A program made the translations under genes and the position numbers. A stretch of 64,000 nucleotides of DNA, from assembly GCA_013374855.1 (NCBI GenBank), contig CP055308.1, forward strand, positions 725,310 to 789,309. The letters are read 5' to 3'. Shown in pieces: positions 47,214 through 63,040 of this stretch. Position 1 is the stretch's first letter. Every line of letters begins with the position of its first letter. Source of the stretch: Candidatus Woesebacteria bacterium (GTDB taxonomy: Bacteria; Patescibacteriota; Microgenomatia; UBA8517). A model generated the notes under the pieces. It had not been told where the DNA came from. It worked only from the letters and a program-made list of their open reading frames with translations, and ran no database searches.

Positions 47214-48317
47214 CTATCTACCTACCAAAAACTCAATCACATCCCCATCCGAAACTATATAATCTTTCCCTTCACTTCTTACCTTGCCTGCATCACGCGC
47301 TGCTTTCCAACCTCCAAAACTGACAAATGTTTTAAAATCAACTACATCTGCCTTTATAAACTTCTGACAAAAATCAGAATGAATTACAGAAGCCGCCTCC
47401 TGTGCATTGGTACCACTTTTGATAGTCCAAGCACGCACCTCTTTAACCCCTGCCGTTAAAAAGCTAATAAGGCCCAAGGTTGAAAAAGCTTTTCTAATAA
47501 GCCTCTCCAACCCAAGTTGTGAAATTCCAAGTGAAGCTAAATATTCTTTCTGTTCTTGCTCCGAAAGCCCTGCTAACTCACTTTCAACTTTTGCTGAAAC
47601 ACAAATAACTTGATCCTCTTTTAAGTTTAGCCTTTCTGAAAAATAAGAAGACACCTCATCTGCCCTTTTAAGATCCTCTTCATCCACGTTCAAAACAATA
47701 ATTACAGGCTTGGCAGTCAAAAGCCCCAACATTTTTGATAATCTTACCTCATCATCCTTTAAATCAAGACTTCTAACAGGTATTCCTTTAGCAAGAGCTT
47801 CTTTAAACCTACAAATAATTTCCCAGTTGCGTTTTGCTTCTTTATCAGGAGTATTACCCGGATCTTTTTGCTTTTCCAAAGTTTGAAGATCAGAAAGTGC
47901 TAGCTCTGTCTCAACAACCAGAAAATCATCCTGAGGCGAAACAGAACCTTCCTTAACTACAGAAGGATCAGAAAAGACACGAATCACATGGCAAATAGCT
48001 GAAGTTTCCCTAATATGGGCTAAAAATTTATTACCCAACCCTTCCCCTTTTGAAGCACCAGCAATAAGCCCGGCAATATCTACAAACTCAACAGTCGAAG
48101 GAGCAATAGGTGGCAAGTAAGATAAATTTTCTTCTTTTTGAACCACTTCAGCGAGTTTGATCAGTCGGTAATCAGGCACCGGCACTACTCCAATATTTGG
48201 TTCAATAGTAGCAAAAGGAAAATTGGCAACATAAGCCTGCTGCTTTTTAAGAAGAGCGTTAAAAAGAGTGCTTTTACCTACATTCGGCAGTCCAACTATT
48301 CCGACCGATAGGTTCAT
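47214..48317 (-). CDS. ychF: ribosome-binding ATPase YchF
   Basis: MNLSVGIVGLPNVGKSTLFNAL P-loop, and a C-terminal TGS domain. Confidence 0.9.
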   Translation of the reverse strand: MNLSVGIVGLPNVGKSTLFNALLKKQQAYVANFPFATIEPNIGVVPVPDYRLIKLAEVVQKEENLSYLPPIAPSTVEFVDIAGLIAGASKGEGLGNKFLAHIRETSAICHVIRVFSDPSVVKEGSVSPQDDFLVVETELALSDLQTLEKQKDPGNTPDKEAKRNWEIICRFKEALAKGIPVRSLDLKDDEVRLSKMLGLLTAKPVIIVLNVDEEDLKRADEVSSYFSERLNLKEDQVICVSAKVESELAGLSEQEQKEYLASLGISQLGLERLIRKAFSTLGLISFLTAGVKEVRAWTIKSGTNAQEAASVIHSDFCQKFIKADVVDFKTFVSFGGWKAARDAGKVRSEGKDYIVSDGDVIEFLVGR

Positions 48318-49950
48318 GTCCCAACTTTTCGGTGGAAGTCAGAGCCAGTTGTGGTAGTGGTATGTGACATAAGACTTCTACCTCACTCCTTTCTTTTATA
48401 ATTACTTTCTCTATTATATCTCGAATGAAGTTCTTTTTGTCATACAACTTAAGGCTTTTGAGAGTCTTTCTTGCTTCAGCACATAATTCATCAGCCTCAA
48501 TGTTGACTACTTCGGGTGAGACTCTGGCTTTTAGCTCCTCTAATTGCCTTTGATATCCCTCTTTCTTTCGTCTGGCTGCCCTTACTAACTCCATATACTG
48601 GTCAAACTCCATCACACCTGAACCATAGGCTTTGGCGTAGCGATTGATTTCTTCTGTCAGTTTGTCGATTTGCTCCTGAATCTTTAATCTCTCTTGGGTA
48701 TCTGCTGATCGGTTTGCCTGTTCTCGAATCCATTCCTCAGCGTGCTTTTTAAGGAGCTCTGAATTAGTTAAATGGTTTGTCAATTCTTTCCAGACCAATG
48801 CGTCTAAAACTCTGGCATTTACCCCTCCAATGTGGCAACGGCGTTGTTCTTTGGGAAAATGGTGTAATCTTTCTTCACAGCGGTAGTAGTAGTGTCCGTT
48901 TCTGTTACAACCATCTCCTGCCCTACGGTTACCACATCCACACCACAATACCTCTGAGAGAAGATAATCAAACTTTCTGTGCTTCTTAGCATATCTTCGG
49001 TTGTATTCCATAATCTCTTGGGCTTTATCGTATAAAAATCTGTCCTCCATAATTATCGGCACCTTGAAGGGATACCACTCCTCTTTGGGTCGAAGGCGAC
49101 GGCTATTTTTCTTTACTTTACGATATTTATCATTTTTAATCCTAGTTTTAGACTCTACAGCCTCATGCTTATTGTAATAAGCGATTCCTGTCCAGTAGGT
49201 TTCGCAACGAAGCATTCTTGTTATCGAACCTTTCGTCCAAAAATCACTTCTTCTTTTCCTAGGCTTAATACCCAAATCGTATAAACGCCTAATAATACCG
49301 TTTATGGATACTCTTTCGATCACAAACCAGTCAAAAACTAATTTTATTGTCCGTATTTCTTCTTCGTTTCTCTCCCAGTGAGCAGGCGTGGTATCGGTTC
49401 TCTTAACATAGTTGTAGCCATACAAGGCACTCCCGCTTATGACAACGCCGTTTTTAGCTTTGTAGAGTTTACCTCTCCTGAAGCGCTCGGCTATCTTTAC
49501 CCTCTCATAATCATGGAAACAGCCCAACACATTTCTCATAAGACCTTGTTCTTCATTTATTGGATTAATATCGTGGAGGGAAATAACTTTGATCCCCGCT
49601 TCTTCAAATTCTCTAAGGAGAACAAGCTGATATGTAAAATCCCTCGATAGACGACCAATATCATAAACATACAGGACTTGAATTTCCTGTCTTTTAATTG
49701 AGTCACGAAGTGCGTCTAAACCTGGTCGAGCCAACATCGTGCCTGTCCAGCCATCATCCAAGAACATGTGCTTATCTGAGAGAATGTTGCCGTCAGCCTT
49801 AATTCGATTTTTAATCTCATCGACTTGTGACTCTATCGTTTGCTCGTTCTCTTGCCTTCCAGTTGAAACTCTGGCATAAAGCCCCGTAACTAGCGGTTGC
49901 TTGGTTTGACCGTTTCCTGTATGCTGTGTGTTAGGCAGTAAATCTTCCAT
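48274..49950 (-). CDS. large serine recombinase (resolvase/invertase N-domain plus recombinase domain plus zinc ribbon/coiled coil)
   Basis: LYARVSTGRQ...IESQ (catalytic Ser region), ..YVYDIGRLSRD.., then a C-terminal Cys cluster (CGCGNRRAGDGCNRNGHYYYRC) and coiled coil. Confidence 0.85.
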   Translation of the reverse strand: MEDLLPNTQHTGNGQTKQPLVTGLYARVSTGRQENEQTIESQVDEIKNRIKADGNILSDKHMFLDDGWTGTMLARPGLDALRDSIKRQEIQVLYVYDIGRLSRDFTYQLVLLREFEEAGIKVISLHDINPINEEQGLMRNVLGCFHDYERVKIAERFRRGKLYKAKNGVVISGSALYGYNYVKRTDTTPAHWERNEEEIRTIKLVFDWFVIERVSINGIIRRLYDLGIKPRKRRSDFWTKGSITRMLRCETYWTGIAYYNKHEAVESKTRIKNDKYRKVKKNSRRLRPKEEWYPFKVPIIMEDRFLYDKAQEIMEYNRRYAKKHRKFDYLLSEVLWCGCGNRRAGDGCNRNGHYYYRCEERLHHFPKEQRRCHIGGVNARVLDALVWKELTNHLTNSELLKKHAEEWIREQANRSADTQERLKIQEQIDKLTEEINRYAKAYGSGVMEFDQYMELVRAARRKKEGYQRQLEELKARVSPEVVNIEADELCAEARKTLKSLKLYDKKNFIRDIIEKVIIKERSEVEVLCHIPLPQLALTSTEKLGHEPIGRNSWTAECR

Positions 49951-50009
49951 AGGTTTATTTGCTTATCAGAGGTCTTCACGCTGTTAACAGGAGACCTCTG
50001 ATTTTTTGA

Positions 50010-50216
50010 TTAAGTTTTCGTCATAGACTTCTCAAATAACTGAGCCAGCTTGATATTGCTTATTCTCCAGGCTTTACCCAGCTTTGCCGCTGGTAATTGC
50101 CCACGCCTTGCCATTCGATAAATGGTTATCTTAGCAAGTTTTAGCTTTTCAGCTGCCTCATTTATAGTTAAGTATTCTTGGTTTTCCATAAGGCTAAATG
50201 ATATTGTTTGATACAC
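50010..50216 (-). CDS. excisionase/MerR-like helix-turn-helix DNA-binding protein (candidate recombination directionality factor)
   Basis: LTINEAAEKLKLAKITIYRMARRGQLPAAKLGKAWRI is an HTH_17-type motif, immediately upstream of the recombinase. Confidence 0.55.
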   Translation of the reverse strand: MYQTISFSLMENQEYLTINEAAEKLKLAKITIYRMARRGQLPAAKLGKAWRISNIKLAQLFEKSMTKT

Positions 50217-50224
50217 TCAACACA

Positions 50225-50443
50225 CTACCCAGAGGGTCTATGTAAGTCAAGTGTGATCGCTAATGATCTTTTATCTACCTTTTGTCTTTCTATAATGTTT
50301 TGTCTTGCCATCATAAAAACACGGTCATAGACTAGCTTCAGGCGCTCGGTGCTTTCTGGCTTATCGGTATAAATAAACTTGATGTTAGGTGACATTATCT
50401 TTCTCATGTTTGTAATACTTTCCTGCACCAATTTGCTCATCAT
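50225..50443 (-). CDS. hypothetical small protein
   Basis: ORF only. Overlaps its neighbour by 59 nt, so the start is uncertain. Confidence 0.2.
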   Translation of the reverse strand: MMSKLVQESITNMRKIMSPNIKFIYTDKPESTERLKLVYDRVFMMARQNIIERQKVDKRSLAITLDLHRPSG

Positions 50444-51014
50444 TCCAATCCTTGATCACTTCGCTAACCCTTCTACTTAACTCGATCTCTTCTGGTGTTA
50501 AGGGTTTTTGCTGGGTCTCATCAATGTAATCTTTTGAAACTTCATATTTCCCCACAGACTCTCCCCACTCGATTCTTGTCATCTCCCAAAGTTGCCGAAC
50601 TTCCTGAACAGTTGCTGGCTCACCTGCCTGCATTTGTTTCTTCAAGGCTTGAAGTTTGTTCCAAAAAGCCTCGGTAATTAGATACGCTCGCTTCTGTCGT
50701 ATCTGGGTTGTCTTATGTTTCAGTCCTTCTAAATCTTCAGCCAGCTTCGCATCTGCCCGCTCCACCCAACGGTATTTAACCGACCAACGCTCAATCGTTC
50801 TTTCTGAGGGTAAATCGCCGAGTTTAGAGCCAAAAATCACCGACAACTCTCCTGCTGAACTCCGACTTATTTGCTCCCATGCTTGAATTAGTTTGGAAAC
50901 ACTCCCAACTTCGCAATACAGCAAGAAAGCTGTATATTGCTTTTCGGTCTCCCCAGGCATTTTTGATGTTGTTGGTTTTTCAGGTTTTGTTGTTTGCATA
51001 TAATTCTTCTCCAT
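50385..51014 (-). CDS. hypothetical protein (possible HTH near N-terminus)
   Basis: ..QYTAFLLYCEVGSVSKLIQAW..ERTIERWSVKYRW.. is HTH-like. No family assigned. Confidence 0.3.
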   Translation of the reverse strand: MEKNYMQTTKPEKPTTSKMPGETEKQYTAFLLYCEVGSVSKLIQAWEQISRSSAGELSVIFGSKLGDLPSERTIERWSVKYRWVERADAKLAEDLEGLKHKTTQIRQKRAYLITEAFWNKLQALKKQMQAGEPATVQEVRQLWEMTRIEWGESVGKYEVSKDYIDETQQKPLTPEEIELSRRVSEVIKDWNDEQIGAGKYYKHEKDNVT

Positions 51015-51666
51015 GCGGGCAAACGCCAGTTGATTCCCAAAGCGACTCGTCTATTTCCTGCATCGTTTTTATGTCTAAGTTATTTGCGTCTTTCTCTAAC
51101 ATCTCCCGATACTCTTCATTACTCCTATGACCATTGCGAAGATTACATCCACACTTAAAGGAACTTAAAGGTTTATAATCGGCTCTTTGCATCTTTGCAA
51201 CGGATTGAGGAGAATTGTCGTCATTCTCTTTAGAGACTTTCTGTTGCAAATCTGAATGAGGTTGTTGTGCTTCTGCAACGACGCCTTGCAAATCTGCAAT
51301 ATGTTCTTGCAGGTCAACGATCTTTTTCTCTTTAACAATTTCAGTTAGCTTCTCCCGAATATCAAAATCAACCACATACACCCTCTTGCCTTGTTTTCTC
51401 CAAAAACCAAGCGAGTAGAGCTTGCCTGCGTTTCTGCTCACCTTAGAAGGACTCCAACCTATCAACCAACCGATTTCCCAAAGCGCATACTCAAAGCTTC
51501 CATATACTTCTCCATGACTTTTATCCCAATCAGCAAGGCACGAGTAGCTCAAATCCCACAAGATATACTCCTGATCAGACAACAACTTCCTATGAAGAAG
51601 TAAAAACCTCCCTCTAAAATGACGGTCAAACCCACTTAATCTGTTCATAATCTTTGTTTGTTGCAT
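50980..51666 (-). CDS. hypothetical protein
   Basis: ORF with good coding appearance and no recognisable motif. Confidence 0.3.
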   Translation of the reverse strand: MQQTKIMNRLSGFDRHFRGRFLLLHRKLLSDQEYILWDLSYSCLADWDKSHGEVYGSFEYALWEIGWLIGWSPSKVSRNAGKLYSLGFWRKQGKRVYVVDFDIREKLTEIVKEKKIVDLQEHIADLQGVVAEAQQPHSDLQQKVSKENDDNSPQSVAKMQRADYKPLSSFKCGCNLRNGHRSNEEYREMLEKDANNLDIKTMQEIDESLWESTGVCPHGEELYANNKT

Positions 51667-51677
51667 ACTGATTCTTA

Positions 51678-51977
51678 TTAGACTTTTTCTGAATATAGCC
51701 TCTCTTTCAGGCTTTTAATGACTGTTACTGCCTTACGAAAGTCCACTAAAACCTCTGGAGAGTTTTCCTCCGCAAAATTGAAAGCCCTAAGAATTTCTTG
51801 TCGACTTGGGGAATCTTTCAGAACAAAAACTGATCTATTAGGATTTGAAGAAGGCTGGATTGATATAAGCTCCAAGCCTCGGAGCATCAAAAAAACTGCC
51901 GAGTAGAAGCTACTTGTGTAATACTGATTATCTTTTGATTTTTGACCAGACATAAATACGCCTTTCTCCAGCCACAA
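51678..51977 (-). CDS. hypothetical small protein
   Basis: ORF only. Confidence 0.25.
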   Translation of the reverse strand: MWLEKGVFMSGQKSKDNQYYTSSFYSAVFLMLRGLELISIQPSSNPNRSVFVLKDSPSRQEILRAFNFAEENSPEVLVDFRKAVTVIKSLKERLYSEKV

Positions 51978-52449
51978 AAAAAGGACTGCATTACTACAGC
52001 TACACTGCCATTTCTTGCGTGTTGCTATCGTGCAGTCCGTCTATTGCGTTCGATTATGTCTGAAAACCTCTTGCAGGAAAAAAGAGGATTTGCCCTTGGC
52101 ATTCCGAAGATCCTGCTGCATGCCCTTATTGCGAGTTGCTTTCGTGCGTTCTTGCTTTCCGAGTCCTATCGTTTGCGAATTTCAACTTAAGGCAGTTGTG
52201 CCTTAGTAGCTATATTTTTACAAAATTCCTATCTTCTTGTCAAGAGTTTCTTGATTAAAAATGTAGTAAGAAAGTCTCCAAATTGATACAATATAAGTAT
52301 AAAGCCTAAACCCCTTCTGGGGCATGGCTAAGAAAACCCATCACAGGCGGTAAGCTCCTCGTCAGAGCACCTGTGATGGGTCATATCCCGAAAGGGGTAT
52401 GGGTAGTCGAAAGGCTATCGCTGGCGGGGAGCTTTTTGTTTCCCTTGAT

Positions 52450-52479
52450 TTGACAATCTCCCCCAAGCGAAGTTAATAT
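52450..52479 (+). promoter_or_regulatory. sigma70-like promoter P1 (TTGACA-17/18-TAATAT) upstream of the secreted-protein gene pair
   Basis: GATTTGACAATCTCCCCCAAGCGAAGTTAATATAGCC lies about 20 nt upstream of the ATG at 52498. Confidence 0.4.
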
Positions 52480-52497
52480 AGCCAACCATATCAAAAT

Positions 52498-53166
52498 ATG
52501 ACAATGAAAATAAAAAATAAGGCTCGTATTATCGCTCCGTTTCTGTTTGTTGCCCTCCTGTTATTGGCTGGTGGTCTGTATTGGTATAAGTCATCCCAGG
52601 ACAGGTTTGCTGCTCCTCGTAAAGATGCTCCGATGGTTAAATTTCGAGTTGATAAACAAAATACCCTCATGGCGGTTACTGGCAATCTTGTCTACTACGG
52701 CTTTGTTAAAGATGAGGAAGCACTCAAATATGCTCTGGAATACACCAAAGACAATACTCCTGGTAAGCCTGGGGCAATCAAGGTGGGCAACAACACCATC
52801 GATACCGAGACCGTCTATGATATTTCTCAATCAATGAACGCCTGGGAGATTGCCCGAATTCTTCTTAATGAAGGCACGCCCAGTGTCAGGGATTGCGATC
52901 ATGGTTGTGAAGAATATAACCCCTTTACTCCAGCCCTTCTGCCTGGAGGAGATATTGCTCCTACTTGGCAAGAGCGTATGCGGGCTAAATATAGCTGGGT
53001 AAAAAACTATGATGACTGTCTTAAAGCTATTGGTCATGATGGGGGTCAAGTAACTTCTGAGGAGGCTTCCAAGCGCACTGGTCACCCAAGAGTGTGTAAT
53101 ACAGCAGACGGTCGTTATTTTATTCAAGGAAAAGAAGGCTGGAGTGATTATCCGCCTTACCCGTAA
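52498..53166 (+). CDS. hypothetical exported protein (signal anchor; Cys-containing)
   Basis: MTMKIKNKARIIAPFLFVALLLLAGGLYW signal anchor, and ..CDHGCEEY.. in the body. Confidence 0.4.
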   Translation: MTMKIKNKARIIAPFLFVALLLLAGGLYWYKSSQDRFAAPRKDAPMVKFRVDKQNTLMAVTGNLVYYGFVKDEEALKYALEYTKDNTPGKPGAIKVGNNTIDTETVYDISQSMNAWEIARILLNEGTPSVRDCDHGCEEYNPFTPALLPGGDIAPTWQERMRAKYSWVKNYDDCLKAIGHDGGQVTSEEASKRTGHPRVCNTADGRYFIQGKEGWSDYPPYP

Positions 53167-53179
53167 AGGAGGTGAGAAT

Positions 53180-53890
53180 ATGAAGATAAAAATTGTCATT
53201 GCACTACTGGTTATTGCCATTTTGGGAGGTGTTTTTGTTTGGTCAAGACAAAGTAGCAAGACCGCTTTATTACCATCAAAACAAACAACTGATGTAACAA
53301 CCCAGGAAGAGACGGTTATCCGTAATTTCATGGCAGAGCCTAACCTCAAGCTGTCTTTTGTTAAGACTGATTTACCGTTTCCAAATTACTTCAGGGTCGG
53401 TAAAGTCACTCAGGTAAATGGTGGTGAGAATATGGAGGCGGTAGAGGAGTGGACACGCCAGGTTAATGTTTATCGCCAAAAGGAATTACTTAATGGACAA
53501 TGCTCGGTTTATGAGTATCACATTGATCCCAGAAGTCATTCCTTGGTAGCAGTTGTCGTTGCGGGGTTAAAGCCTAATGAAATTGAGGCATACAAGGTAA
53601 AGGGTATTGAGTGTAAGACCGAGGTTCACAACTTGCCAGAAATATCTAAGGCAGAGGCTGAAAGTGTTGCCATGGAATATCTAAAACGAGTCTTACCCAA
53701 CTTTGACCAAATTAAAGACAGGTTTGTTTATTCCCATGGTAAAACGCACAGTTGGCTGTGGGAGGACAAAAGCTATAAACTGCCAGATGGTCTAGTGGGT
53801 AGACCTTACTCGTATCCCACGATCCGCATATCGGTAGACAACACCAAAAACATTCAGTATTGGAATACCGTCTCGTTATTCCAAAACTAA
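53180..53890 (+). CDS. hypothetical exported protein, N-terminus paralogous to the preceding gene
   Basis: MKIKIVIALLVIAILGGVFVW signal anchor. The track ORF begins at 53144. Confidence 0.4.
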   Translation: MKIKIVIALLVIAILGGVFVWSRQSSKTALLPSKQTTDVTTQEETVIRNFMAEPNLKLSFVKTDLPFPNYFRVGKVTQVNGGENMEAVEEWTRQVNVYRQKELLNGQCSVYEYHIDPRSHSLVAVVVAGLKPNEIEAYKVKGIECKTEVHNLPEISKAEAESVAMEYLKRVLPNFDQIKDRFVYSHGKTHSWLWEDKSYKLPDGLVGRPYSYPTIRISVDNTKNIQYWNTVSLFQN

Positions 53891-53906
53891 GGTCTATCGG
53901 GAGACC
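53891..53906 (+). terminator. short stem-loop after the secreted-protein pair
   Basis: GGTCT-atcgg-GAGACC followed by TTATCATT. Confidence 0.3.
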
Positions 53907-54092
53907 TTATCATTCCTCCCATTCAACGATTTCTTGCCCGCCAGCGGTGAGGAGAGATTTTCTGGCGTGATAGACAGTAGGCTCTGGGAGGTCGGACATT
54001 CCTCCATCTACGAGCGGTAGCATCCGAATTTCTACCCTCAGTAGCCTACCAAGCTGAAACATAAAGAAAAATGGAGAAAATATCAATTCGAT

Positions 54093-54121
54093 TTGACAAT
54101 ATCTTTTAACGAAGTTAAATT
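54093..54121 (+). promoter_or_regulatory. second copy of the promoter-like motif (P2)
   Basis: GATTTGACAATATCTTTTAACGAAGTTAAATTACC shares GATTTGACAAT and CGAAGTTAA blocks with P1 at the same spacing. Confidence 0.3.
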
Positions 54122-54332
54122 ACCACTGGTTTTGACGCTCGAAATACACCCTTTATAAGGGGAAACTCTCCAGGCGAGCCCAATCAAGTATGGAGGTTTT
54201 AGGAGTCCTCCCAGAACCACTGCAGATTACCTCAACAAATCCCCAACGAGGCTGGTGAAGCTGAATAGAGGTAAAAACTATGCCACCCCAGGCACGAAAA
54301 CCCCACAGAAGGCGACACACGGGGCAACGGGG

Positions 54333-55166
54333 TTAATACAACTTAGTATTCCTTCGCAAGACTTCGTCGGCGATTTTCTGCATAAAATGCAGATCTAAAT
54401 CTATGTTAGTATAAAAATCTAAAAGTAGTGGGTAAAACACCTTTTTTGCTTGCCATGACTTCGCTCCACCGCCGTGAGCTACGGCACATCGCACATATTT
54501 ATAAAAACGGTTCACAAATCTTTTAGTCACTTTGTAACCAGCATAGACTGGTGCTCCTGTCTTAACATGCCAACCTGTTCTCTCTCTGACGGTTTTAAGG
54601 GAAACGATTTCGTTTACCAACTCTGTGTCTTTTTTCTTATACCACCCCTCAAAAAATCTCCATAACTGCAAAACTCTATAATCAATCGGTTTGCTTTCAT
54701 CACGAGCCTCTCGATAAAAATGGAGAACACGCCTGGGATTTTTCTTCTTATTTAAGAAATCAAGATTTCTGCAGAATCCGTCGCCTCCGTTAATAACTTG
54801 CGTTTTCTTCCATTCTTCTGCCTCCTCGAAGCTGCCTTCATGCAGTAACCATGTCTTTGAGTTATATTGACAGGTCACAGGGAAAGCAAAATAGGCATAG
54901 GTTTGATATTTAGCTGCGCAGGCGCTCAAAGTCATGAGCGCAAAACCATAAGCCTGTATAAGAATTTCTGATTCTTTAACTTTCCTTTTCTCTAATTCAG
55001 AAACATCCACCGCTAAACCTGAAAGATTCTGAAAACGCTCTGGGGGATTACTGCTGGGGAGATTAGAACTCGAAGTTGGATCGGCAACAAATCTTCCTCC
55101 CTGGAAACTTAGAGTTCCTTGTATACAGAGTCCCGTCCGTAAATTCTTAAAGATAACTTCGCTCAT
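54333..55166 (-). CDS. hypothetical protein with C-terminal R-x4-H motif (possible HEPN-like)
   Basis: ..KYVRCAVAHGGGAK.. It is the last gene of the five-gene cassette. No family assigned. Confidence 0.3.
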   Translation of the reverse strand: MSEVIFKNLRTGLCIQGTLSFQGGRFVADPTSSSNLPSSNPPERFQNLSGLAVDVSELEKRKVKESEILIQAYGFALMTLSACAAKYQTYAYFAFPVTCQYNSKTWLLHEGSFEEAEEWKKTQVINGGDGFCRNLDFLNKKKNPRRVLHFYREARDESKPIDYRVLQLWRFFEGWYKKKDTELVNEIVSLKTVRERTGWHVKTGAPVYAGYKVTKRFVNRFYKYVRCAVAHGGGAKSWQAKKVFYPLLLDFYTNIDLDLHFMQKIADEVLRRNTKLY

Positions 55167-55534
55167 ATTTCCTTTTTATGCTCTGTCAATTTCTGCTCTA
55201 AATCTTTGATAACTTTACCGCTTTGACTAACAAACTTTTTGTAGTAATTCTTGGTTCTGTCTATTACTTGGTGAATAAAAACTGGTTTTCCGTCTCTCCC
55301 TACTCGCTCGCCAATAAGTTGCTCATGATTCCACCTATGATCCTTTGAAAAACTATCCTTGCCCTTTTTCTTTACGCCCAATAAATCGTATGCCTTTATT
55401 GAGTCATGAAGACTAAGTCTCACAAACTTATGCCCGCATTCGAGCAGATGATCTATTCGGCTTCCCCGTCGGGTTGTCGTTTTTATTCTTCTTTCAGCAT
55501 TACAAGCTGAGCAAAAAACCTTAGCCATTTTCAT
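55163..55534 (-). CDS. small zinc-ribbon protein
   Basis: N-terminal CSAC-x19-ECGH (C-x2-C...C-x-H). Confidence 0.35.
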   Translation of the reverse strand: MKMAKVFCSACNAERRIKTTTRRGSRIDHLLECGHKFVRLSLHDSIKAYDLLGVKKKGKDSFSKDHRWNHEQLIGERVGRDGKPVFIHQVIDRTKNYYKKFVSQSGKVIKDLEQKLTEHKKEI

Positions 55535-56405
55535 TTTTGAAAACTCCAGATTGTTGTAACTTACGCACCTCTCCGAGCAGATAGTCTAAGTCCATATAAA
55601 AAGGTATCGATTTTTCCGCTCCAAGGATCAGCGCACCTCCATCAATCACAATCCCTTTGTGACTATCAAAGGTTACCTTACCGCCAGTTGCTATAAAACC
55701 TTGATCAAAATCAATCGTTCCACCACTGGAAGATCTCAAAAAAAGTTTTCCGCCGAATTTTGTATCAATAACATGACCGTCAAGATAATTTTTGATTTCT
55801 ATAATTTGTAACCTGCTGGGAGGAGTGAATTTGAGATGTAGAAAAATGTCTCTGAGGCTACCCCTAACAATTACCTCAGCGCCTTTTGTCTCCACATCCC
55901 AGCTACCAACACTTGCCATAATTTCATTTTCGACAATTTCCAGCGTTTCTCCTTTGACTGACTTGAAATAGGCACTAACCAGCGGAGGTTCGTCCTTATT
56001 TAGTTGTTTTACTGATAAAAGATCTTTTTGATCCGCTTTAAGTAAAACTCCATCGGGAGATATAAATACAATTCCTCCAAGAGCGATCTCCAACGGATAT
56101 TCCATATCTTCAAAAAGATAATGAGGTTTATTACCCTGCTTACAAAAAGGCTTACTGTCAGCAATTTTTATTCGTTTACAGCTTAATCTTTTTCTTGTAG
56201 CATCATCGTGATGTTTTGCACACAAAAGAGTTATTCCTTTGGCATTATGCTTTCTGGCTTCGCTGAAAGGAGGATCGAAGTGTTCGTATTCGCAAAACAG
56301 AGATCCACACAGCACACAGCCATAGCCACACCGTTGCCTTACCTCTCGTTTGACATTAAAAGGTATATCTCTCGATAAACCATATTTATTTACTTTCTTG
56401 GACAT
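55521..56405 (-). CDS. HNH endonuclease domain protein with Gly-rich C-terminal domain of unknown function
   Basis: ..REVRQRCGYGCVLCGSLFCEYEHFDPPFSEARKHNAKGITLLCAKHHD.. is an HNH finger. The track ORF extends to 56525; the internal Met at 56405 is the likely start. Confidence 0.6.
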   Translation of the reverse strand: MSKKVNKYGLSRDIPFNVKREVRQRCGYGCVLCGSLFCEYEHFDPPFSEARKHNAKGITLLCAKHHDDATRKRLSCKRIKIADSKPFCKQGNKPHYLFEDMEYPLEIALGGIVFISPDGVLLKADQKDLLSVKQLNKDEPPLVSAYFKSVKGETLEIVENEIMASVGSWDVETKGAEVIVRGSLRDIFLHLKFTPPSRLQIIEIKNYLDGHVIDTKFGGKLFLRSSSGGTIDFDQGFIATGGKVTFDSHKGIVIDGGALILGAEKSIPFYMDLDYLLGEVRKLQQSGVFKNENG

Positions 56406-57123
56406 ATGCGCTTTTGTGAAAGAGATTTTTAACCAAGCTGTCTGCAAATCCAAAAACTTGAAAAACCATTTCCCTGTCAACAAATCTTTTAGCAAAGCCC
56501 CAAACAATGGGATTATCCTTTGCATCTAAATCAACCTCTTTTACTTCTCTTGTTTTAATATCAAGCCTTTTTACCTTTCTGGCTGCTACATTTTTCGTTA
56601 TTTTCTTGATGTTATAATGCAAATAAGGATTTCTAATTGAGTCTTTGAAGCTAATTAACCTTTTTTCTGTTTCTTTATCAATAACACCTAATTGTTTCGC
56701 CTCATTGATAGCTGGATTAAGCTCCATGCTTTCAATCCTATCCCACTCGCTTTCTTTGTAAGTGTTCCCAAATTTCTTTCTGACAATGGCATGTTTGAGA
56801 GAAAACTCAACTAAAACAGCGCTTAGTGAGATGGCAGCTCCATAAAGTCCGAATAGAATACACTCCCGAATTTCATCATAAAGAAAGCCAATTGTAGGGA
56901 TAGCAATATCTGGCGGAGGAGAGAATTTAGTTATGTTAGCTAAGGCAATGGTTTTTCTTTGGGAAAATATCTTTTCGACAGCTTGTTCAGGAGTCAATCT
57001 TTGGGGTTCGTCAAACTTTATTCCTTGCTTCTGGAGTTCCTTTATTGTTTCTGGCTTGCTGATGATGTGGGTTGCACCCTTAGCCAGTTCAGTTAGAAGA
57101 TCATTTATGTTTTTCATAACCAT
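56386..57123 (-). CDS. DUF4145/HEPN-like protein (tentative)
   Basis: ..YDEIRECILFGLYGAAISLSAVLVEFSLKHAI.. plus ..SIRNPYLHY.. (R-N-x3-H) resemble the DUF4145/HEPN pattern, recalled from memory. Confidence 0.35.
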   Translation of the reverse strand: MVMKNINDLLTELAKGATHIISKPETIKELQKQGIKFDEPQRLTPEQAVEKIFSQRKTIALANITKFSPPPDIAIPTIGFLYDEIRECILFGLYGAAISLSAVLVEFSLKHAIVRKKFGNTYKESEWDRIESMELNPAINEAKQLGVIDKETEKRLISFKDSIRNPYLHYNIKKITKNVAARKVKRLDIKTREVKEVDLDAKDNPIVWGFAKRFVDREMVFQVFGFADSLVKNLFHKSAYVQESK

Positions 57124-57148
57124 TTACAAAATTGCCTTGGTTGTTTAA

Positions 57149-57754
57149 TTAGACACGCAGGAACAATCCCAAAACAATAAGAATTATCCCTATCATAAAT
57201 AAAATCAACTGTCCGTTTTCAATCTTTTGAGCATCCAGGTGTATAAAATTCAGAATTTTGTTTATCTGTTTCTGCCTCTTTTTAAGATCGGCATCATATT
57301 CTTTCTTAAAGCTCTCTGAGTATGAAAGTATTTCTTTTTCTGGGCTGATGTCGAGACGATAAAACTTTTCAAGAAAATCAAGCGCCTGCTTCTGCTGAAA
57401 TAAATTACTGCTTTCCTCTAATTGAATTTCAAATCGCTTTGATTCAAGACCAAAAAACAGTGAAGCTACACCCAATATCAATGACACGCCCAAACCAGCA
57501 AAACCCAGTTTTGTCAGCAGTGAAACATCAAAGTTTCCTTGTAGGGCGACAAAGATAGAAATTGTTCCACCAGAAATGGTAATTAACTGTAGTCTGAAGT
57601 TTTCGGAGTCTTTTAGCAGACTTTTATGTCTCTCAGAAATTCTTTTTAAGTCTTCAGTGACTTTATCCCTAAAATCTGATAGTGCTTTCTCACCATAGGG
57701 CTTCAGAAATTCTTCAAGATCCTTTTTAGGATTAAAGTTTTTTATATCGATCAT
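57149..57754 (-). CDS. three-TM membrane protein with cytoplasmic helical N-domain (possible effector/pore component)
   Basis: TM helices LQLITISGGTISIFVALQG, LGFAGLGVSLILGVASLFF, and C-terminal LILFMIGIILIVLGLFLRV. Confidence 0.4.
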   Translation of the reverse strand: MIDIKNFNPKKDLEEFLKPYGEKALSDFRDKVTEDLKRISERHKSLLKDSENFRLQLITISGGTISIFVALQGNFDVSLLTKLGFAGLGVSLILGVASLFFGLESKRFEIQLEESSNLFQQKQALDFLEKFYRLDISPEKEILSYSESFKKEYDADLKKRQKQINKILNFIHLDAQKIENGQLILFMIGIILIVLGLFLRV

Positions 57755-57822
57755 ACTTATTTTTTACAAAAACTGCCCAATTAAGGGCAGTTAAACCAGT
57801 AATCTTTGAGAGAAGTATCTGA

Positions 57823-59604
57823 TTACACCTCTTTTGTAACCAGAACTTCTTCTCCTAACATGTCAATGACTTTGACTGCCACTTTGGTTGGTTTTTCGCT
57901 TATTTCAAGCTCATATTCGCCCTTAACCAAATCGTTCTGTTTTTCTGGGACATCCGAGAAACCAATCTTGAATACTTCACCGTCATAATTTGTATCAACC
58001 AACACTACATCGATCATTGATCTGAGATCTGGGATTTTTTTCTGCAAAAGTCCTGGTTCAAGCTCTAAGCGTTTAATGATTGTAGGGGAGATAAAGGATG
58101 TGATTTTAATCTTTACTTTGTCTTTGCCTATTCGCTTGATTTCTACTTCCGCTTTTGATGGTTCGTAACTTACAAAATTCTTGTCTTTGAGGTCAAAGAT
58201 AATAAACTGACGCATGCGTTTCTTGGTTCTGGTGTCTTTATAAGGCTGTTTTTTATTCCATTCTTCAATCCAAGCATCTACCTTTGTCTCCCGACCAAGT
58301 GAGATAACCACCACATCTCTATCCTCGTCTGGGCGCTTATTGAGCTCGTCAACGATTAGCTGGAGGTCAAGTAGGGTTAAGGGATGATTAAAATCTATAA
58401 TTTTTACCAGTTCACCACTATCCCGCAAACCGTCAAAGAAAGTGTCCGTCTTAACCTTAGTAATTCCATATTGCTGGATTGCCAGTTCCTTTGCTTCAGT
58501 TTTTAAGATTCTCAAATCGTAGTTATTAACCTTGTAAATGGCGAAGGTAGGATATTTTGTTTCCTTTTGACCCTTGATAATTTTTTGTAGCCTTTTACTT
58601 GTAACCTGAATTGCCCCCTTATTTACATCAACCCCAATCCAGCGTCTGCCCAGTTTTTGAGCAGCAGCACAAGTTGTTCCAGAACCCATAAAACAGTCCA
58701 GAATCAAATCATCTTCATCCGAAGAAGCCAGGATTACTTTTTCCAAAAGCCTTTCTGGCTTTTGAGTTGCATAATCTGTTCTTTCCAAAGCCATCGCATT
58801 TATAGCTGGTATCCTCCACACATCGGTTGGTAGTCTTAAATCGTTTTTAGCTCTGGTAGCTGATTCAACACCCGTAGCCAATCTTCTCAACACTTCTTCT
58901 CCTCGTTTCTCCAAAATATTCTGAGGGTTAAAGGTGAAGTTAGCACTTTTTGTGTAAAACAATATATTATCGTGTTTTTTACCATACTCATTTTTACTTA
59001 CCCCGCCCGTTTCGTAATTCCAAACAATTTCGGCTTTTAACCCATCTTCGCCAAACACTTCGTCCATTAAAACCTTGATGTAATGCACCATCCTATAATC
59101 CAAGTGAACATAAATACTGCCTGTTTCTGCCAGCAATTCTTTCAATAAAATTAACCGCTCATACATAAACTGGAAGTATTCGTCCCTTTTCCAAATATCT
59201 TCATACATTGTCTGCTGAATGATCGATTCGCTGTCTTCTTCGATCCTGCCTAAATCTTTTAATCCCCGCAGTTCAACTTTTCTCATGTAGTCTTTGTTGC
59301 TGGCAAATGGAGGATCGATATAAATAAGGTCAACTTTACCTCTAAATCCAAGTTCTAAGAGTGTTGCTAAAACTTCTTTGTTATCTCCATGAAATAAGAG
59401 ATTGTGCCAATTTTTTTCAAGCTCTTTGTATTCTGGAATTTTGATTATTTTATTTGTCTGTTTTGGATCAAATGCTTCAATTAGCTGTGTCGGGTAACCT
59501 TGAACTTCTTCAATCGGTTTTTTACCAACCCAGTGGAGCATTGGTCTGCCTTTTGGCGTCGTGATTTTTAGCTTTTTAGCGCTATCTTTCATACCCTTTG
59601 ACAA
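57823..59604 (-). CDS. mod: Type III restriction-modification DNA methyltransferase (Mod), beta-class N6-adenine/N4-cytosine MTase
   Basis: Motif IV DPPF (LIYIDPPFASNKDY) precedes motif I (LDCFMGSGTTCAAAQ), with a variable region between, as in Type III Mod. Confidence 0.8.
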   Translation of the reverse strand: MSKGMKDSAKKLKITTPKGRPMLHWVGKKPIEEVQGYPTQLIEAFDPKQTNKIIKIPEYKELEKNWHNLLFHGDNKEVLATLLELGFRGKVDLIYIDPPFASNKDYMRKVELRGLKDLGRIEEDSESIIQQTMYEDIWKRDEYFQFMYERLILLKELLAETGSIYVHLDYRMVHYIKVLMDEVFGEDGLKAEIVWNYETGGVSKNEYGKKHDNILFYTKSANFTFNPQNILEKRGEEVLRRLATGVESATRAKNDLRLPTDVWRIPAINAMALERTDYATQKPERLLEKVILASSDEDDLILDCFMGSGTTCAAAQKLGRRWIGVDVNKGAIQVTSKRLQKIIKGQKETKYPTFAIYKVNNYDLRILKTEAKELAIQQYGITKVKTDTFFDGLRDSGELVKIIDFNHPLTLLDLQLIVDELNKRPDEDRDVVVISLGRETKVDAWIEEWNKKQPYKDTRTKKRMRQFIIFDLKDKNFVSYEPSKAEVEIKRIGKDKVKIKITSFISPTIIKRLELEPGLLQKKIPDLRSMIDVVLVDTNYDGEVFKIGFSDVPEKQNDLVKGEYELEISEKPTKVAVKVIDMLGEEVLVTKEV

Positions 59605-59682
59605 AACTGTTAATAAATGTTATTATAATTATGCTGAAAACTGGAGCGAGAGCGTGATGCCTCAAACCAGTTTTTTTGCATT

Positions 59683-60459
59683 TTACGGCAAAACTTTGTA
59701 ACTTTCTATTTTTGTATAAAACTTCTTTTTCTTATCTCCTGTCTGCGGGTGAACAGCGAACAGTTTATGATTAAATACATTTAAGATATTTTTGTCGTAA
59801 TAAGACAGATCCTCGTTTGGTTTATCAAGAAATTTTACCTTGGCGCCATAAGCTAAAAGATCAGCTATTTGCTCTTCGATATCAAAATTTTTCTTCGTGA
59901 CAAATGAAATTTCAGTTAAGTGTTCTTGGACCTTTTCGTAAGAAATTCCAATATCTGATATTCCCGCTGATAAATAAAAACCGGCAGTTTTATGATAAAT
60001 AAAATCTCTTTCTGTTGAAGCGGATTCAATTACCAATCTTCCTCGGCTGTTAGTGGCAAGAAGAGCAAGGATAAAATTTTTAATCATTATATTGGCTGTT
60101 TCTTTATAAACTTTTTGGCTATTCCAATTCTTTTTTGTCGCTTTTTTGTTGTCTACGATGACTGTAAATATTTGATAGCTGCCTTTATTTAGGAAATCAA
60201 ATAAAAGTTTCTTAAAGTTTTTGTCTATTTCCTTGTCTTTAAGAATAGAGAAATCACCCATTTGTCTTCCAATTTCTCTTGAATGAAAAACAATATCGGT
60301 TTTCTCCCAAAACTTAAATTTAATTTGATCAGATTTTACCTTCAACAACTCTCGATTATCATCGTTTATCAAACAACCGCATAATATATAACAACCGTTT
60401 TTATTAGCCTTTGGGTTAGCAAAACCAGATTCGTCAATAAAAAGATTTTGTAATTTCAT
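59683..60459 (-). CDS. DUF3800-family protein embedded between res and mod
   Basis: The N-terminal LFIDESGFAN motif is characteristic of DUF3800, and the length of about 258 aa fits. Confidence 0.55.
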   Translation of the reverse strand: MKLQNLFIDESGFANPKANKNGCYILCGCLINDDNRELLKVKSDQIKFKFWEKTDIVFHSREIGRQMGDFSILKDKEIDKNFKKLLFDFLNKGSYQIFTVIVDNKKATKKNWNSQKVYKETANIMIKNFILALLATNSRGRLVIESASTERDFIYHKTAGFYLSAGISDIGISYEKVQEHLTEISFVTKKNFDIEEQIADLLAYGAKVKFLDKPNEDLSYYDKNILNVFNHKLFAVHPQTGDKKKKFYTKIESYKVLP

Positions 60460-63038
60460 TTTTGTTTGTAAATCCAGTCAATGACCGGTTGAACTTTACC
60501 AAATACCGATTCTCCTTCCTCTAAAAGCAGAAGTTCATACTTAATTTTATCAGGATTTATCGTTTCCAACTTTTTCATCTCTTTTTCAGCCTCTTTAATC
60601 CTATATTTTGGCGCTTTTACCTCTACAATTAAGGACTTGCCATCTTTCTTGCGAATCAAAAAGTCAGGTGTATAACTGTGCCAATCTCCTTTGTCGTCTT
60701 TGTATTCAAAGATAAAATCAGTTTTTTCTGGATCGTTAATTGCACCTGTATAATAAATGTCCTCAACATTATCGGGGTCTTCACCGAGTTTAGTAAGCAT
60801 TCGCTCAAAAAACTCCCGTTCGTCCTCCGAATCAAAGTTATACGGATCATAATGAAAGCCAAAGAGCGGCAGCTGCCCAGTTTGATGTTGATATTTTTCT
60901 ATACTCAAAACGTAATCATCAAGTTTACTTTTATTTACCCTTATTTCAGTTGTCCAAATTTCTTCTTTATTTTTTTCTTCTTTAACAAAACCCTTCTTTT
61001 TAACGATTGCTATTGCTTCTTCAACGGTTTCATTAACTACCTTATAGCGTATGCTTTGTTTTTCTATTTGCGAGCGGATAAGTTCCAGCTCAAACGCTCC
61101 GATTTCACCCTCTGGGTATAAGCCTTCAAGCAGTTTATAAGTTTTGAGCGAGTCTAAACGGTAGGCATGAGCCAGAACTACGGCTGCTTGAAATAAATCA
61201 ATCTTCCTGTCTGTTACCACTCCCTTTTTAGTTCCCACTTCAACTAAAACCCCTTTTCTTTGAGCTTTGGACATGGAGTAAAGAGTCTTTTCAAAGGATT
61301 TGACTGCCCGTTCCTCTGGTTTATTGATTTTTATGCCTTCCGCAGCTTTTAAATCTTCTGGGACTATCTTTTGGACGAGCTTTTTGATTAGTAGCGGTTC
61401 AGGTGTGGTTTTTTTAAGAGTTACTTTAACTGTTACGGTGTCGGCAGAGACCCTGTTAAGATCATCTAGACCCTCACCAAAGGTTTCTTGCAACTGCCGA
61501 TCAAGAATGGAGACATTGTCTTTTGAGAGGTAAATCTTGGCTTTTTTGGTGTTGTTGGGAACTTGTCTCAAACAGCGGCTGGCAGCTTGTAAAACAAAGT
61601 TATTGCTCGAAGTGAGTTTCCTTGCCAGGGCTGTAGCAAATAAAGATAAGCAGTTCCATCCTTCCGTGCCTTTGTTAACAAGTAAGAAGACCCTGTAGGG
61701 CAGTTTAGGGTCGTTAATGCGGTTGTCAAAAAGGTCTTTGACCTCGTCAGTTGACTTGTTATGCACTGGCAGGACAACTGATGGGTCAATTTTTAGAGAG
61801 ATGAGAGTTTGCTCGACTACTGGTTGAGCTTTTTCCAAATCACCGATCTGGGGGAAGTAAATTGCCAGCTTTGCATATTCGCCGCTCCCAACTCGGACAT
61901 CTTTGTATTCCTGAAAGAAATCTTTGACAACATCAACAATAAAATCCTTATCCGAGACTTCTGGATAAGCCATGATATTGCCTCTAACTTCCTTGAGAAT
62001 GCCGTCTTCAATGCCCTGGGACAAGCCATACCAGTAAATAACATCCCGTAGAAGCTGTCTTTGGTAGTAAGGCGTGCCTGTGGTGTTCACTACGGCTAAG
62101 AGATTGGTCTTCTCGGCAATGTAGTTGATTGTCTGCCTAACTCGCTTCAGGTCGCTTGCCAGCTCTTGCCCATAGGTGTGGTGAGCCTCATCCGAGAAAA
62201 CGGCTAAGTGAGGCAGAGAGGTGATGGTTTGTAGCCTTAAATTAGCTACCAGCTCTTTTGCTTCTTCAACTTCCAGTTTCAACTGCCCAGAGAGAAGGGT
62301 TTTGGGGATGCTGTTTTTTTGAAGTCGTATTTTCTCGGTGTTGGTGACGATGACATTAAATGAGCTGCCTCGAATAACAGGAATGTCTTTTTCACCATCT
62401 CTGGTGTAGGTGAACTTAACATTGATAATAAAAGATTTATAAAAACGGGGAGGAAGTATCTTGTCATAGGGAGTATCTGAGATTTCTCTCAAAGCACCTA
62501 AAATGGTTTTTCCAGGCGCAAATACCAGGGCATTTTTGATAAAGATGCCGTCTTCATCCTGATATTCCAAAGCCATCGCAAACTCACTAGCAATGATGGA
62601 AGCAATCAGGATTGTCTTACCCGCTCCCATTGCCAGTGCCAGGATATAACTTGGGTATGAGAGAGTGAGCGTCTCCCTTAGTGCTTCGAGTTTATATTTC
62701 TTAACAAAGGTATTATCAGTTTTTACCTTTTCGAAGATTGCGTCTATTCCGCCTCCAGCTAGTAATAGGTCGGTTAGATCTTCCTCTGACAGGGAGATCC
62801 CAAGAGCTTTCAGGAGATCCCTACCTTGGAAGTATTCTTTATAAAGCTCGAAGATGTTGGGAGTGTTTTTAACCAGTCTCAAATACCAGTAAGTTTCTAA
62901 TGCCTCAAATTGTGCTTTTCTTAGGAAGTTGTTCTGATTGTGTTGGAGGATGGTGGCGATGGCAGGGTAAGAAGAAGGGTATCCTTGCTGTCTCCAGTTA
63001 GTGACATCTAATTTTAACTTTTGGTAAAGATTGGTCAT
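60456..63038 (-). CDS. res: Type III restriction enzyme Res subunit (SF2 DEAH helicase plus C-terminal PD-(D/E)xK nuclease)
   Basis: Walker A MGAGKTIL, DEAH box (VFSDEAHH), and the C-terminal ..YTPDFLIRKKDGKSLIVEVKAPKY.. nuclease motif. Confidence 0.8.
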   Translation of the reverse strand: MTNLYQKLKLDVTNWRQQGYPSSYPAIATILQHNQNNFLRKAQFEALETYWYLRLVKNTPNIFELYKEYFQGRDLLKALGISLSEEDLTDLLLAGGGIDAIFEKVKTDNTFVKKYKLEALRETLTLSYPSYILALAMGAGKTILIASIIASEFAMALEYQDEDGIFIKNALVFAPGKTILGALREISDTPYDKILPPRFYKSFIINVKFTYTRDGEKDIPVIRGSSFNVIVTNTEKIRLQKNSIPKTLLSGQLKLEVEEAKELVANLRLQTITSLPHLAVFSDEAHHTYGQELASDLKRVRQTINYIAEKTNLLAVVNTTGTPYYQRQLLRDVIYWYGLSQGIEDGILKEVRGNIMAYPEVSDKDFIVDVVKDFFQEYKDVRVGSGEYAKLAIYFPQIGDLEKAQPVVEQTLISLKIDPSVVLPVHNKSTDEVKDLFDNRINDPKLPYRVFLLVNKGTEGWNCLSLFATALARKLTSSNNFVLQAASRCLRQVPNNTKKAKIYLSKDNVSILDRQLQETFGEGLDDLNRVSADTVTVKVTLKKTTPEPLLIKKLVQKIVPEDLKAAEGIKINKPEERAVKSFEKTLYSMSKAQRKGVLVEVGTKKGVVTDRKIDLFQAAVVLAHAYRLDSLKTYKLLEGLYPEGEIGAFELELIRSQIEKQSIRYKVVNETVEEAIAIVKKKGFVKEEKNKEEIWTTEIRVNKSKLDDYVLSIEKYQHQTGQLPLFGFHYDPYNFDSEDEREFFERMLTKLGEDPDNVEDIYYTGAINDPEKTDFIFEYKDDKGDWHSYTPDFLIRKKDGKSLIVEVKAPKYRIKEAEKEMKKLETINPDKIKYELLLLEEGESVFGKVQPVIDWIYKQK

Positions 63039-63040
63039 AT

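Follow-up and report, generated by a model that had tools for sequence, protein, structure and literature searches.

A large serine recombinase gene overlapping the start of ychF: the very probable attR of an integrative island in Candidatus Woesebacteria

The recombinase-ychF overlap and its homologues

The DNA stretch analyzed here, termed the window, comprises 64,000 nucleotides of the Candidatus Woesebacteria contig CP055308.1 (assembly GCA_013374855.1, positions 725,310 to 789,309), in which a recombinase gene runs into the 5' end of the GTPase gene ychF. On the minus strand, the 558-residue open reading frame (ORF) at 48274..49950 and the 367-residue ychF ORF at 47214..48317 have 44 nt in common (48274–48317) in different frames. 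This arrangement had been described in an earlier sequence-only reading of the window, and is confirmed by the ORF listing together with the Pfam matches. The recombinase matches Resolvase (PF00239, 6e-28, residues 24–169), Recombinase (PF07508, 1e-12) and Zn_ribbon_recom (PF13408, 3e-06), whereas ychF matches MMR_HSR1 (2e-22) and YchF-GTPase_C (1e-32). With the catalytic, Recombinase and zinc-ribbon domains all present, the 558-residue protein is, judged by its domains, a large serine recombinase (LSR). The nucleophilic serine S29 (in YARVSTGRQ) and R27, as well as the zinc-ribbon cysteines C337, C339, C358 and C372, are invariant in 33 homologues of the window recombinase. In the AlphaFold model of the homologue P0069, rather than of the window protein itself, the long helices at 368–489 between the zinc-ribbon strands form a coiled-coil insert. 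A sequence search against solved structures matched only the catalytic domain of the recombinase (TP901-1, 1.8e-06), and is uninformative on the tail.

The YchF N-terminus MNLSVGIVGLPNVGKST and the recombinase tail ...HEPIGRNSWTAECR are encoded by the same DNA in two frames, and here too the DNA agrees with the sequence-only reading, which had the end of the recombinase overlapping the YchF N-terminus in another frame. The 5' end of ychF reads ATG AAC CTA TCG GTC GGA ATA GTT GGA CTG CCG AAT GTA GGT AAA, and the recombinase frame over the ychF start reads ...CAT GAA CCT ATC GGT CGG AAT AGT TGG ACT GCC GAA TGT AGG TAA. The same relation recurs in the homologues, which typically end in ...KLG(Y/H)EPxxR(D/N)x(W/R/G)...C..., corresponding to the YchF start M-x-L-S-V-G-I-V-G-L-P-N-V-G-K in the other frame.

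Protein search with the recombinase revealed 670 relatives at E <= 1e-20, and the tails were analyzed in the 120 top-ranking proteins, the identity of which extends down to 47%. The last 60 residues carry the frame-shifted YchF signature in 110 of these 120 proteins, whereas the control, 58,376 residues from the protein bodies, gave three matches; the recombinase-ychF overlap is thus far beyond chance. The ten proteins without the signature comprise three truncated sequences, five visible variants and two (P0069 and P0101) with a different, mutually similar tail. In every fetched DNA context of the full-length ychF-tailed homologues (L081–L085 and L094–L100), the recombinase runs into ychF and the cargo varies. 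The gene for a helix-turn-helix protein of the family HTH_17 lies directly upstream of the recombinase in L082, L083, L085, L094–L098, L099 and L100, and also in L101. The same junction is found in at least seven independent assemblies with different hosts and cargo.

By contrast, 12 of the 13 Patescibacteria loci obtained from the reference-genome search have a recombinase-free ychF. The closest relative (L001, YchF identity of 72%) lacks the recombinase and keeps the gene order ychF-rpsF-ssb-rpsR-peptidase. Because such recombinase-free loci exist (L001 and 11 others) and the occupied loci carry different cargo, we interpret the overlap as an integration junction. Very probably, the 44-nt overlap represents the attR attachment site of a 19.4-kb integrative island, produced by LSR recombination between the attP of the island and an attB spanning the first codons of ychF.

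Beyond this family, a recombinase 33% identical to that of the window (L010, 2753–4339) also overlaps ychF, with GTCGG/G at the junction and a longer substitute start MSSSGLRVG.... From this locus, the codon-6 GG may also be a target for recombinases far outside the present family. In the viral contigs of IMG/VR, no recombinase more than 29% identical to that of the window was found, and the 18-nt P-arm pattern matched unrelated genes only. Exact database look-ups of the window recombinase and of the last ORF of the window returned no record.

Crossover position and architecture of the att sites

Comparison of the window with L085, which has a 97% identical recombinase, revealed zero mismatches over ~1.4 kb, from ~49,700 down to 48,301. 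From 48,300 onward, a mismatch occurs about every 6 nt (~80% identity). As the identity ends at the third base of ychF codon 6 (48,300), the boundary between element and host is placed at 48,301/48,300, that is, at the codon-6 GG (48302–48301) or immediately before it. All occupied sites have ATGARCCTATCRGTSGG, whereas the empty sites encode the same residues with other synonymous codons. GG is the only sequence that all attL, attR, attP-type and empty sites have in common at the crossover position; it comprises the last identical bases before the window and L085 diverge, and sits at the symmetry center of the reconstructed 52-bp attP described below. attL and attR have in common only GTCGG, followed by one mismatched base and then ATAG.

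On this basis, the putative crossover dinucleotide GG (48301..48302, minus strand) provides bases 1–2 of ychF codon 6 (Gly) and bases 2–3 of the recombinase Arg550 codon CGG. It is flanked by the P arm of attR, the island half-site at 48303..48327 (minus strand, AAGTTGGGACATGAACCTATCGGTC), and by the B' arm, the host half-site at 48275..48300 (minus strand, AATAGTTGGACTGCCGAATGTAGGTA), which is the P-loop coding sequence IVGLPNVG. Of the 44-nt overlap (48274..48317, minus strand), the 17 nt at 48317–48301 are assigned to the island and encode the recombinase residues HEPIGR and the YchF residues MNLSVG, and the 27 nt at 48300–48274 are assigned to the host. Accordingly divided, the intact ychF (47214..48317, 367 residues) would have its codons 1–5 and the GG of codon 6 from the island and the remainder from the host, as indicated by the Pfam matches and the identity break with L085. 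In the integrated form of the recombinase gene (48274..49950, 558 residues), residues 1–550 would come from the island, and the last eight residues NSWTAECR, together with the stop codon, arise from ychF DNA in a second frame. The P arm is conserved in the window, L085, L081, L084, L094, L099 and the attP-type L101, L103, L104 and L106, the recombinases of which are as little as 48% identical. It has a triple use: as a half-site of the recombinase, as the coding sequence of the recombinase residues KLGHEPIGR, and, one frame over, as the substitute YchF start MNLSVG.

The comparison with L085 also revealed that the recombinase gene is a mosaic, because the 1.4-kb block (49700–48301) of 100% identity adjoins sequence of 66–90% identity further into the island, with a breakpoint near 49,700, and the host ychF genes are only ~80% identical.

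The far junction was found on the Logan contig L108, which was reached via the Res protein of the window. L108 9039–22583 equals window 64000–50456 without a mismatch, and the contig continues 9 kb beyond the window end. L108 5292–5311 reads ATG TCA AGT CTT TCT GTC GG, a host-type ychF start encoding MSSLSVG, and is followed by GATAGAATAAGATATTCCACAACTT (longer: GATAGAATAAGATATTCCACAACTTTAGAC...). In the recombinase frame, the sequence after this junction reads DRIRYSTTLDFRFNFLLPNKRTVRIITQRDDYGRIIRS..., giving the full tail DRIRYSTTLDFRFNFLLPNKRTVRIITQRDDYGRIIRSTPPPISYESPAIPTNSL and then a stop; this tail remnant matches the tail of P0069 (3.6e-10). Beyond it lie host genes encoding an rRNA adenine dimethylase (Pfam RrnaAD, KsgA-type), a serine hydroxymethyltransferase and glycosyltransferases. 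The attL at L108 5310–5311 corresponds to window-equivalent ~67,728, which is 3.7 kb past the window end and gives an island of 19.4 kb. Of these, 15.7 kb are inside the window (48301..64000, no strand assigned), from attR at 48,301/2 onward, and the island runs on to window-equivalent 67,728. Neither a second ychF start, at protein or DNA level, nor the reverse complement of the P arm was found in the 48.3–64 kb region of the window, because attL lies outside it.

These junctions uphold what the sequence-only reading had supposed about the integration. It had placed the insertion at or within the 5' end of ychF, and the L085 comparison puts the break at the GG of codon 6; the alignment with relatives that it proposed for defining the site is provided by the empty loci (L001 and 11 others) and the L085 break. 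It had the element supplying the displaced ychF sequence, and the host start and first codons indeed survive at the far junction. The matching att site, expected beyond the window, lies 3.7 kb further on, on L108.

A crossover upstream of the ychF start codon, which would leave ychF entirely of host origin with the recombinase reading through into host DNA, would agree with the host-encoded stop codon of the recombinase and with the extra residues between KLG and the ychF-derived tail in P0056. However, the identity between the window and L085 runs 17 nt into ychF, up to the GG; the occupied sites have one sequence where the empty sites use other synonymous codons; and the attL sites of L108, L099 and L094 each retain the host ATG and 5–6 codons ending in GG. 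We therefore consider an upstream crossover highly improbable.

Reciprocal joining of the half-sites gave two complete sites. B plus B' forms an attB with the coding sequence of a normal YchF start, MSSLSVGIVGLPNVGKS, and P plus P' forms a 52-bp attP, AAGTTGGGACATGAACCTATCGGTC-GG-GATAGAATAAGATATTCCACAACTT, with the GG exactly central and an in-frame recombinase tail. The core sequences are AAGTTGGGACATGAACCTATCGGTCGGGATAGAATAAGATATTCCACAACTT for the reconstructed attP and AACCAATGTCAAGTCTTTCTGTCGGAATAGTTGGACTGCCGAATGTAGG for the reconstructed attB. The ends of attP form the inverted repeat AAGTTGGGAYA ... TRTCCCAACTT (end motifs AAGTTGGGACAT / ATATTCCACAACTT), and the site is located within the 3' end of the recombinase reading frame. 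In the contigs of P0069 and P0101, P and P' are contiguous: AAGTTGGGATATGAACCTATCAGTA-GG-GATACGAATCTCGCTGTCCCATACTT, 52–53 bp in length, with mutually inverted ends and a central GG. The GG is not followed by ychF in these contigs, and the next gene in L103 encodes a SIR2-like protein. These short contigs possibly display the attP configuration, or else a tandem junction.

As a short, pseudo-palindromic site with a non-palindromic central dinucleotide, the predicted attP fits the rules for LSR sites. For the LI integrase, the outer (zinc-ribbon) motif lies 5 bp nearer to the center in attB than in attP (PMC3783163). When the B' half-sites were scored against a matrix from attP positions 15–25, the best match was at an inward shift of +5 bp (-1.5 versus -24 at 0), with +3 and +4 close. 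The sites thus appear to follow the 5-bp-shift rule in part, as B' fits best at +5 and B has no signal.

The remaining alternative does without a mobile element: two resident genes would simply overlap on the same strand, or the assembly would be chimeric at a repeat. Compact genomes often contain short overlaps of this kind, and the contig holding L108 ends ~114 nt before the junction, as computed from coordinates. This explanation is barely credible in view of the empty sites in relatives, the same junction in at least seven independent assemblies with varied hosts and cargo, the complementary attL, and the reciprocal reconstruction, in which YchF has a normal start and the recombinase a homologous tail.

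Integration swaps the conserved 55-residue C-terminal tail of the recombinase for eight residues of frame-shifted ychF. The stop codon of the window recombinase is made by the host ychF codons GGT AAA, whereas that of 563-residue homologues lies at TTT AAY; the length differences among the homologues appear to reflect where the host synonymous codons make a second-frame stop. The 55-residue tail remnant at attL is in frame and intact, and the reconstructed full recombinase has 605 residues. P0069 and P0101 have 40–44 further conserved residues after ...KLGYEPxSRD, namely VPYLEFxFxF..PKPR..RIIxQRDExGRIVHS, and alignment of five tails revealed ten invariant columns. In the AlphaFold model of P0069, residues 525–539, which include most of those encoded by the attP core, have a predicted local distance difference test (pLDDT) score below 50, and are followed by three β-strands with pLDDT of 60–81. 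The model fits an attP core that encodes a linker under relaxed protein constraint, followed by a tail that would be a real protein segment.

A profile of the five tails matched 95 further database proteins, mostly "hypothetical proteins" of 50–75 residues, the N-termini of which are host ychF starts read out of frame. Judged from these N-termini, the 50–75-residue proteins are attL remnants called as genes. The tail coding sequence is also present at the far ends of integrated islands, in one copy in L099 (11.4 kb from the recombinase-ychF junction) and in two copies in L094. Each copy lies directly 3' of a host-type ychF start, with a -10-like box before the start in all three cases. L099, the attL of which reads TAGAAT...ATG TCA CTA AAG ATC GG / AACTCGC..., is a second complete island, with attL at ~185–250, attR at 11,607–11,625 and an element of 11.4 kb. 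In L081/L082, no tail remnant was found within 10 kb upstream, so the island there is longer than this flank.

In L094, two attL-type junctions (1137–1160 and 1896–1925) are 760 nt apart, with a 188-residue gene between them. Each has its own -10-like box, a ychF-like start (MSLSVG; MSQLSCG) and an intact remnant of the recombinase tail. This double attL suggests successive integrations at one site, with most of an older element lost.

Public gene calls shorten ychF to 323 (L081), 294 (L082) and 338 (L084) residues, compared to ~365, by choosing an internal start, because the caller avoids an overlap with the recombinase gene. Taken with the dozens of 50–75-residue attL remnants called "hypothetical proteins" and the recombinases that are 3–8 residues too long or too short, the junction is a source of annotation errors.

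Mobility, ychF expression and gene content of the island

We propose that the LSR recombines the island attP with an attB in the first codons of ychF, at or a few bases from the codon-6 GG. After integration, ychF would remain intact with its N-terminus recoded from the host MSSLSVG to MNLSVG, and the host upstream region, start codon and first codons of ychF would be left at attL, 19.4 kb away. The recombinase would lose its 55-residue tail to attL and end eight frame-shifted ychF residues later. Excision, presumably carried out by the truncated recombinase with the neighboring HTH_17 protein as its partner, would restore the 605-residue recombinase and the native start of ychF. While the island is integrated, ychF would be transcribed by read-through from the island via the recombinase gene, as no promoter was found in the island and the host upstream region is now at attL.

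More speculatively, the location of attP inside the gene might serve as a built-in state sensor. The 605-residue free form, with its structured β-strand tail, would be tuned for integration, the 558-residue tail-less form, ending in meaningless residues set by the host ychF codons, would be inert without a partner or tuned for excision, and the island would control ychF expression. We regard this extension as doubtful; if true, directionality and host-gene control would be hard-wired in one 52-bp site in a large element family of Patescibacteria.

Alternatively, the island may have integrated as described but now be a fixed, immobile relic, vertically inherited, with a recombinase that is inactive without its native tail. 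This would be consistent with the decayed, tailed recombinase fragments upstream of ychF elsewhere (L104, L106), with the two tandem attL-type scars of L094, and with the fact that no excised form of the window strain was observed. On the other hand, the recombinase, the HTH_17 gene and the 55-residue tail remnant are all intact and in frame; 1.4 kb of the recombinase gene is 100% identical in hosts with ychF genes ~80% identical, which points to recent transfer; and the cargo differs between otherwise similar backbones. Moreover, every integrated copy is necessarily without the tail, and tail loss alone cannot mean inactivation of the family. An immobile relic is therefore unlikely in our view.

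The two fragments just mentioned are recombinase C-termini of 185 and 138 residues (L104 10001–10558 and L106 5791–6207, respectively), still joined to the native tail. Between the L104 fragment and ychF, 1.3 kb downstream, is a Ham1-like gene, and the L106 fragment adjoins genes resembling those of a cyclic-oligonucleotide-based anti-phage signaling system (SMODS, HORMA, AAA) and an OLD-like ATPase gene. They look like decayed copies in a hotspot of defense genes.

Several points weigh against the interpretation of the overlap as the attR of a mobile island. The position of the crossover is deduced from symmetry and the identity break, and could be anywhere within the common GTCGG. No read or contig of the window strain shows an excised circle or an empty site, and mobility is deduced by comparison. 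The contigs with contiguous P and P' (L101–L103) are short, and could be tandem arrays instead of free circles. The B half-site, scored with the same attP matrix, has no recognizable recombinase motif. The decayed fragments L104 and L106 indicate that some copies are dead, and the window copy could be dead as well. No sigma-70-like promoter on the ychF strand was found in the ~970 nt upstream in the island, nor was a clear ribosome-binding site. Finally, base composition barely separates the island from the host.

The G+C content is 36.5% at 1–48,300, 39.7% at 48,301–64,000 and 38.2% in the 5.3-kb host flank beyond attL, and reaches 41–44% only in 48–56 kb (Mann-Whitney p = 0.011, 2-kb windows). 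The visible G+C rise from 48.3 kb claimed in the sequence-only reading therefore exists as a modest increase (36.5 to 39.7%), but does not mark the island; likewise, the profile it proposed to compute is not uniform across 48 kb, yet is a weak marker. The plus-strand AT skew flips at ~48 kb from +0.145 to -0.122 with the genes on the same strand. As the host flank past attL (L108 1–5290) keeps the negative sign, the flip is a property of the surrounding chromosome and not of the island. Composition was rejected as a boundary marker, given a G+C gap of ~3 points and a skew flip common to the host flank.

The supposition that the island probably supplies the promoter of the ychF operon did not hold up in the same way; with no sigma-70-like site in the ~970 nt upstream, it remains a guess. 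In the empty sites L001, L002, L005 and L006, a -10-like box (TAAAAT/TACAAT) ends 6–8 nt before the ychF ATG, and no ribosome-binding site is present. The position of this box suggests a leaderless ychF mRNA in several Patescibacteria, and integration would remove this leaderless-type start arrangement.

The island gene next to the recombinase, at 50010..50216 (minus strand), encodes a 68-residue HTH_17 protein (Pfam HTH_17, 2e-13) that also matches PHROG excisionase and recombination directionality factor families, and is a candidate excisionase or recombination directionality factor. Upstream of it, the island backbone (50225..51666, minus strand) comprises a 72-residue ORF, a 209-residue small-terminase-like ORF (50385–51014) and a 228-residue ORF (50980–51666). 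The 209-residue ORF matches PHROG 6299 (terminase small subunit) at 9e-15. L081, L085 and L099 have similar-sized ORFs in matching order upstream of their recombinases. The cargo includes a type III-like restriction-modification module (57823..63038, minus strand) composed of Mod (57823–59604), a DUF3800 protein (59683–60459) and the Res helicase-nuclease (60456–63038), with matches to Pfam N6_N4_Mtase (1e-49), DUF3800 and ResIII and to PADLOC MTase_III (6e-63); apart from this methylase, PADLOC recognized nothing among the cargo genes. The other cargo genes encode a DUF5659 protein, two predicted membrane or secreted proteins, MauJ-like and HNH-like proteins, a second HTH_17 ORF and an S26-peptidase-domain protein. 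The sequence-only reading had gene content switching at 48.3 kb, and excisionase-like, small-terminase-like, HNH-like and type III restriction-modification genes indeed follow. It also held that the same overlap in relatives with no island would speak against integration: the overlap does occur in many genomes, but always with the island backbone and variable cargo.

The second HTH_17 ORF, a MerR-type excisionase-like protein of 63 residues (63041–63232, minus strand), is located immediately upstream of Res. The ORF at 63235–63762 (minus strand) is the end of the S26-peptidase-domain protein, which has 601 residues and starts beyond the window (L108 7999–9804). Within the island, a full-length match to the Rfam LOOT RNA (RF03000) was found at window 52303–52419 on the plus strand (86.9 bits versus a gathering threshold of 46.4), just upstream of two plus-strand ORFs (52498–53166 and 53144–53890) that look membrane-bound or secreted.

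Among the ORFs tested across the 19.4-kb island, neither Pfam nor PHROGs revealed any capsid, portal, large terminase or tail gene, which speaks against a complete tailed prophage. No match to DNA polymerase B of the primer-independent type (piPolB) was found among the island ORFs tested either, which speaks against a pipolin. No recognizable replication initiator is present in the window, and HTH_36 occurs only in the L081 counterpart. A small-terminase-like ORF without other packaging or virion genes hints at a satellite-like lifestyle, and we classify the element as an integrative island of possibly phage-derived or satellite-like nature.

Significance and comparison with known systems

The proposed sites provide a natural att pair at base resolution, in which attP comprises 52 bp and attB lies in the P-loop codons of a near-universal GTPase. 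The pair belongs to a large, previously uncharacterized family of serine integrases from an uncultured phylum, and enzymes of this type are wanted as genome-engineering tools. The coding arrangement is unusual in that a single 25-nt arm would serve for protein binding while encoding the end of one protein and the beginning of another. In Patescibacteria, the stretch upstream of ychF emerges as an entry point for restriction-modification and defense-associated islands (SIR2, OLD-like ATPase, Mrr), which helps to read gene flow in organisms that cannot be grown. In the open-access literature, we found nothing relevant on prophages or integrative elements with a serine recombinase in Patescibacteria or the candidate phyla radiation, nor any serine integrase described as having its attP within its own reading frame.

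The targeting of ychF itself is already known from other phyla. According to the part of the pipolin study considered here, ychF is the integration site of LSR-encoding pipolins with defense-type cargo in Actinomycetota, the site being inferred from gene context, with no crossover or att structure given in that part (PMC11551731). Compared to these pipolins, as far as that part describes them, the target, the LSR and the defense-type cargo are alike, whereas the phylum and the element type differ, with no piPolB match here. In Streptococcus pneumoniae, a defective prophage carries its int just upstream of ychF, the expression of which it reportedly controls (Chen et al. 2019, as summarized in PMC8637289). 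As described in that summary (PMC8637289), its attB lies between a DUF951 gene and ychF, outside the coding sequence, whereas the site proposed here is inside ychF.

The island resembles the systems of the A118/LI, phiC31, Bxb1, SPbeta SprA and TP901-1 integrases in its three-domain enzyme, its pseudo-palindromic attP of ~50 bp and its shorter attB. As with phage and island serine integrases, there is a single central dinucleotide, no long direct repeats, and an adjacent small DNA-binding protein as the candidate directionality factor. To our knowledge, attP lies outside the int gene in the classic serine-integrase systems. Unlike these, the attP described here is inside the integrase reading frame, and integration exchanges the C-terminal tail of the enzyme.

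Prophages that insert into genes, such as those at tRNA 3' ends, bring a replacement for the displaced end and leave the target intact. The surrogate end provided by the island likewise keeps its target intact; here, it is a 5' end of only 17 nt, contained in a second frame of the integrase gene, and the host upstream region, the usual place of the promoter, is displaced and not duplicated. Among elements with tyrosine integrases, int is split on integration in the SSV1-type fuselloviruses, and the repressor is truncated in the mycobacteriophages BPs and Brujita, giving integration-dependent immunity. As in these elements, integration would alter the product of the element's own gene, and the free and integrated forms would have different proteins. 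In contrast to them, the island uses a serine recombinase, the exchange is limited to the last 55 residues of this enzyme, and the start of a host gene has to be encoded by the same DNA.

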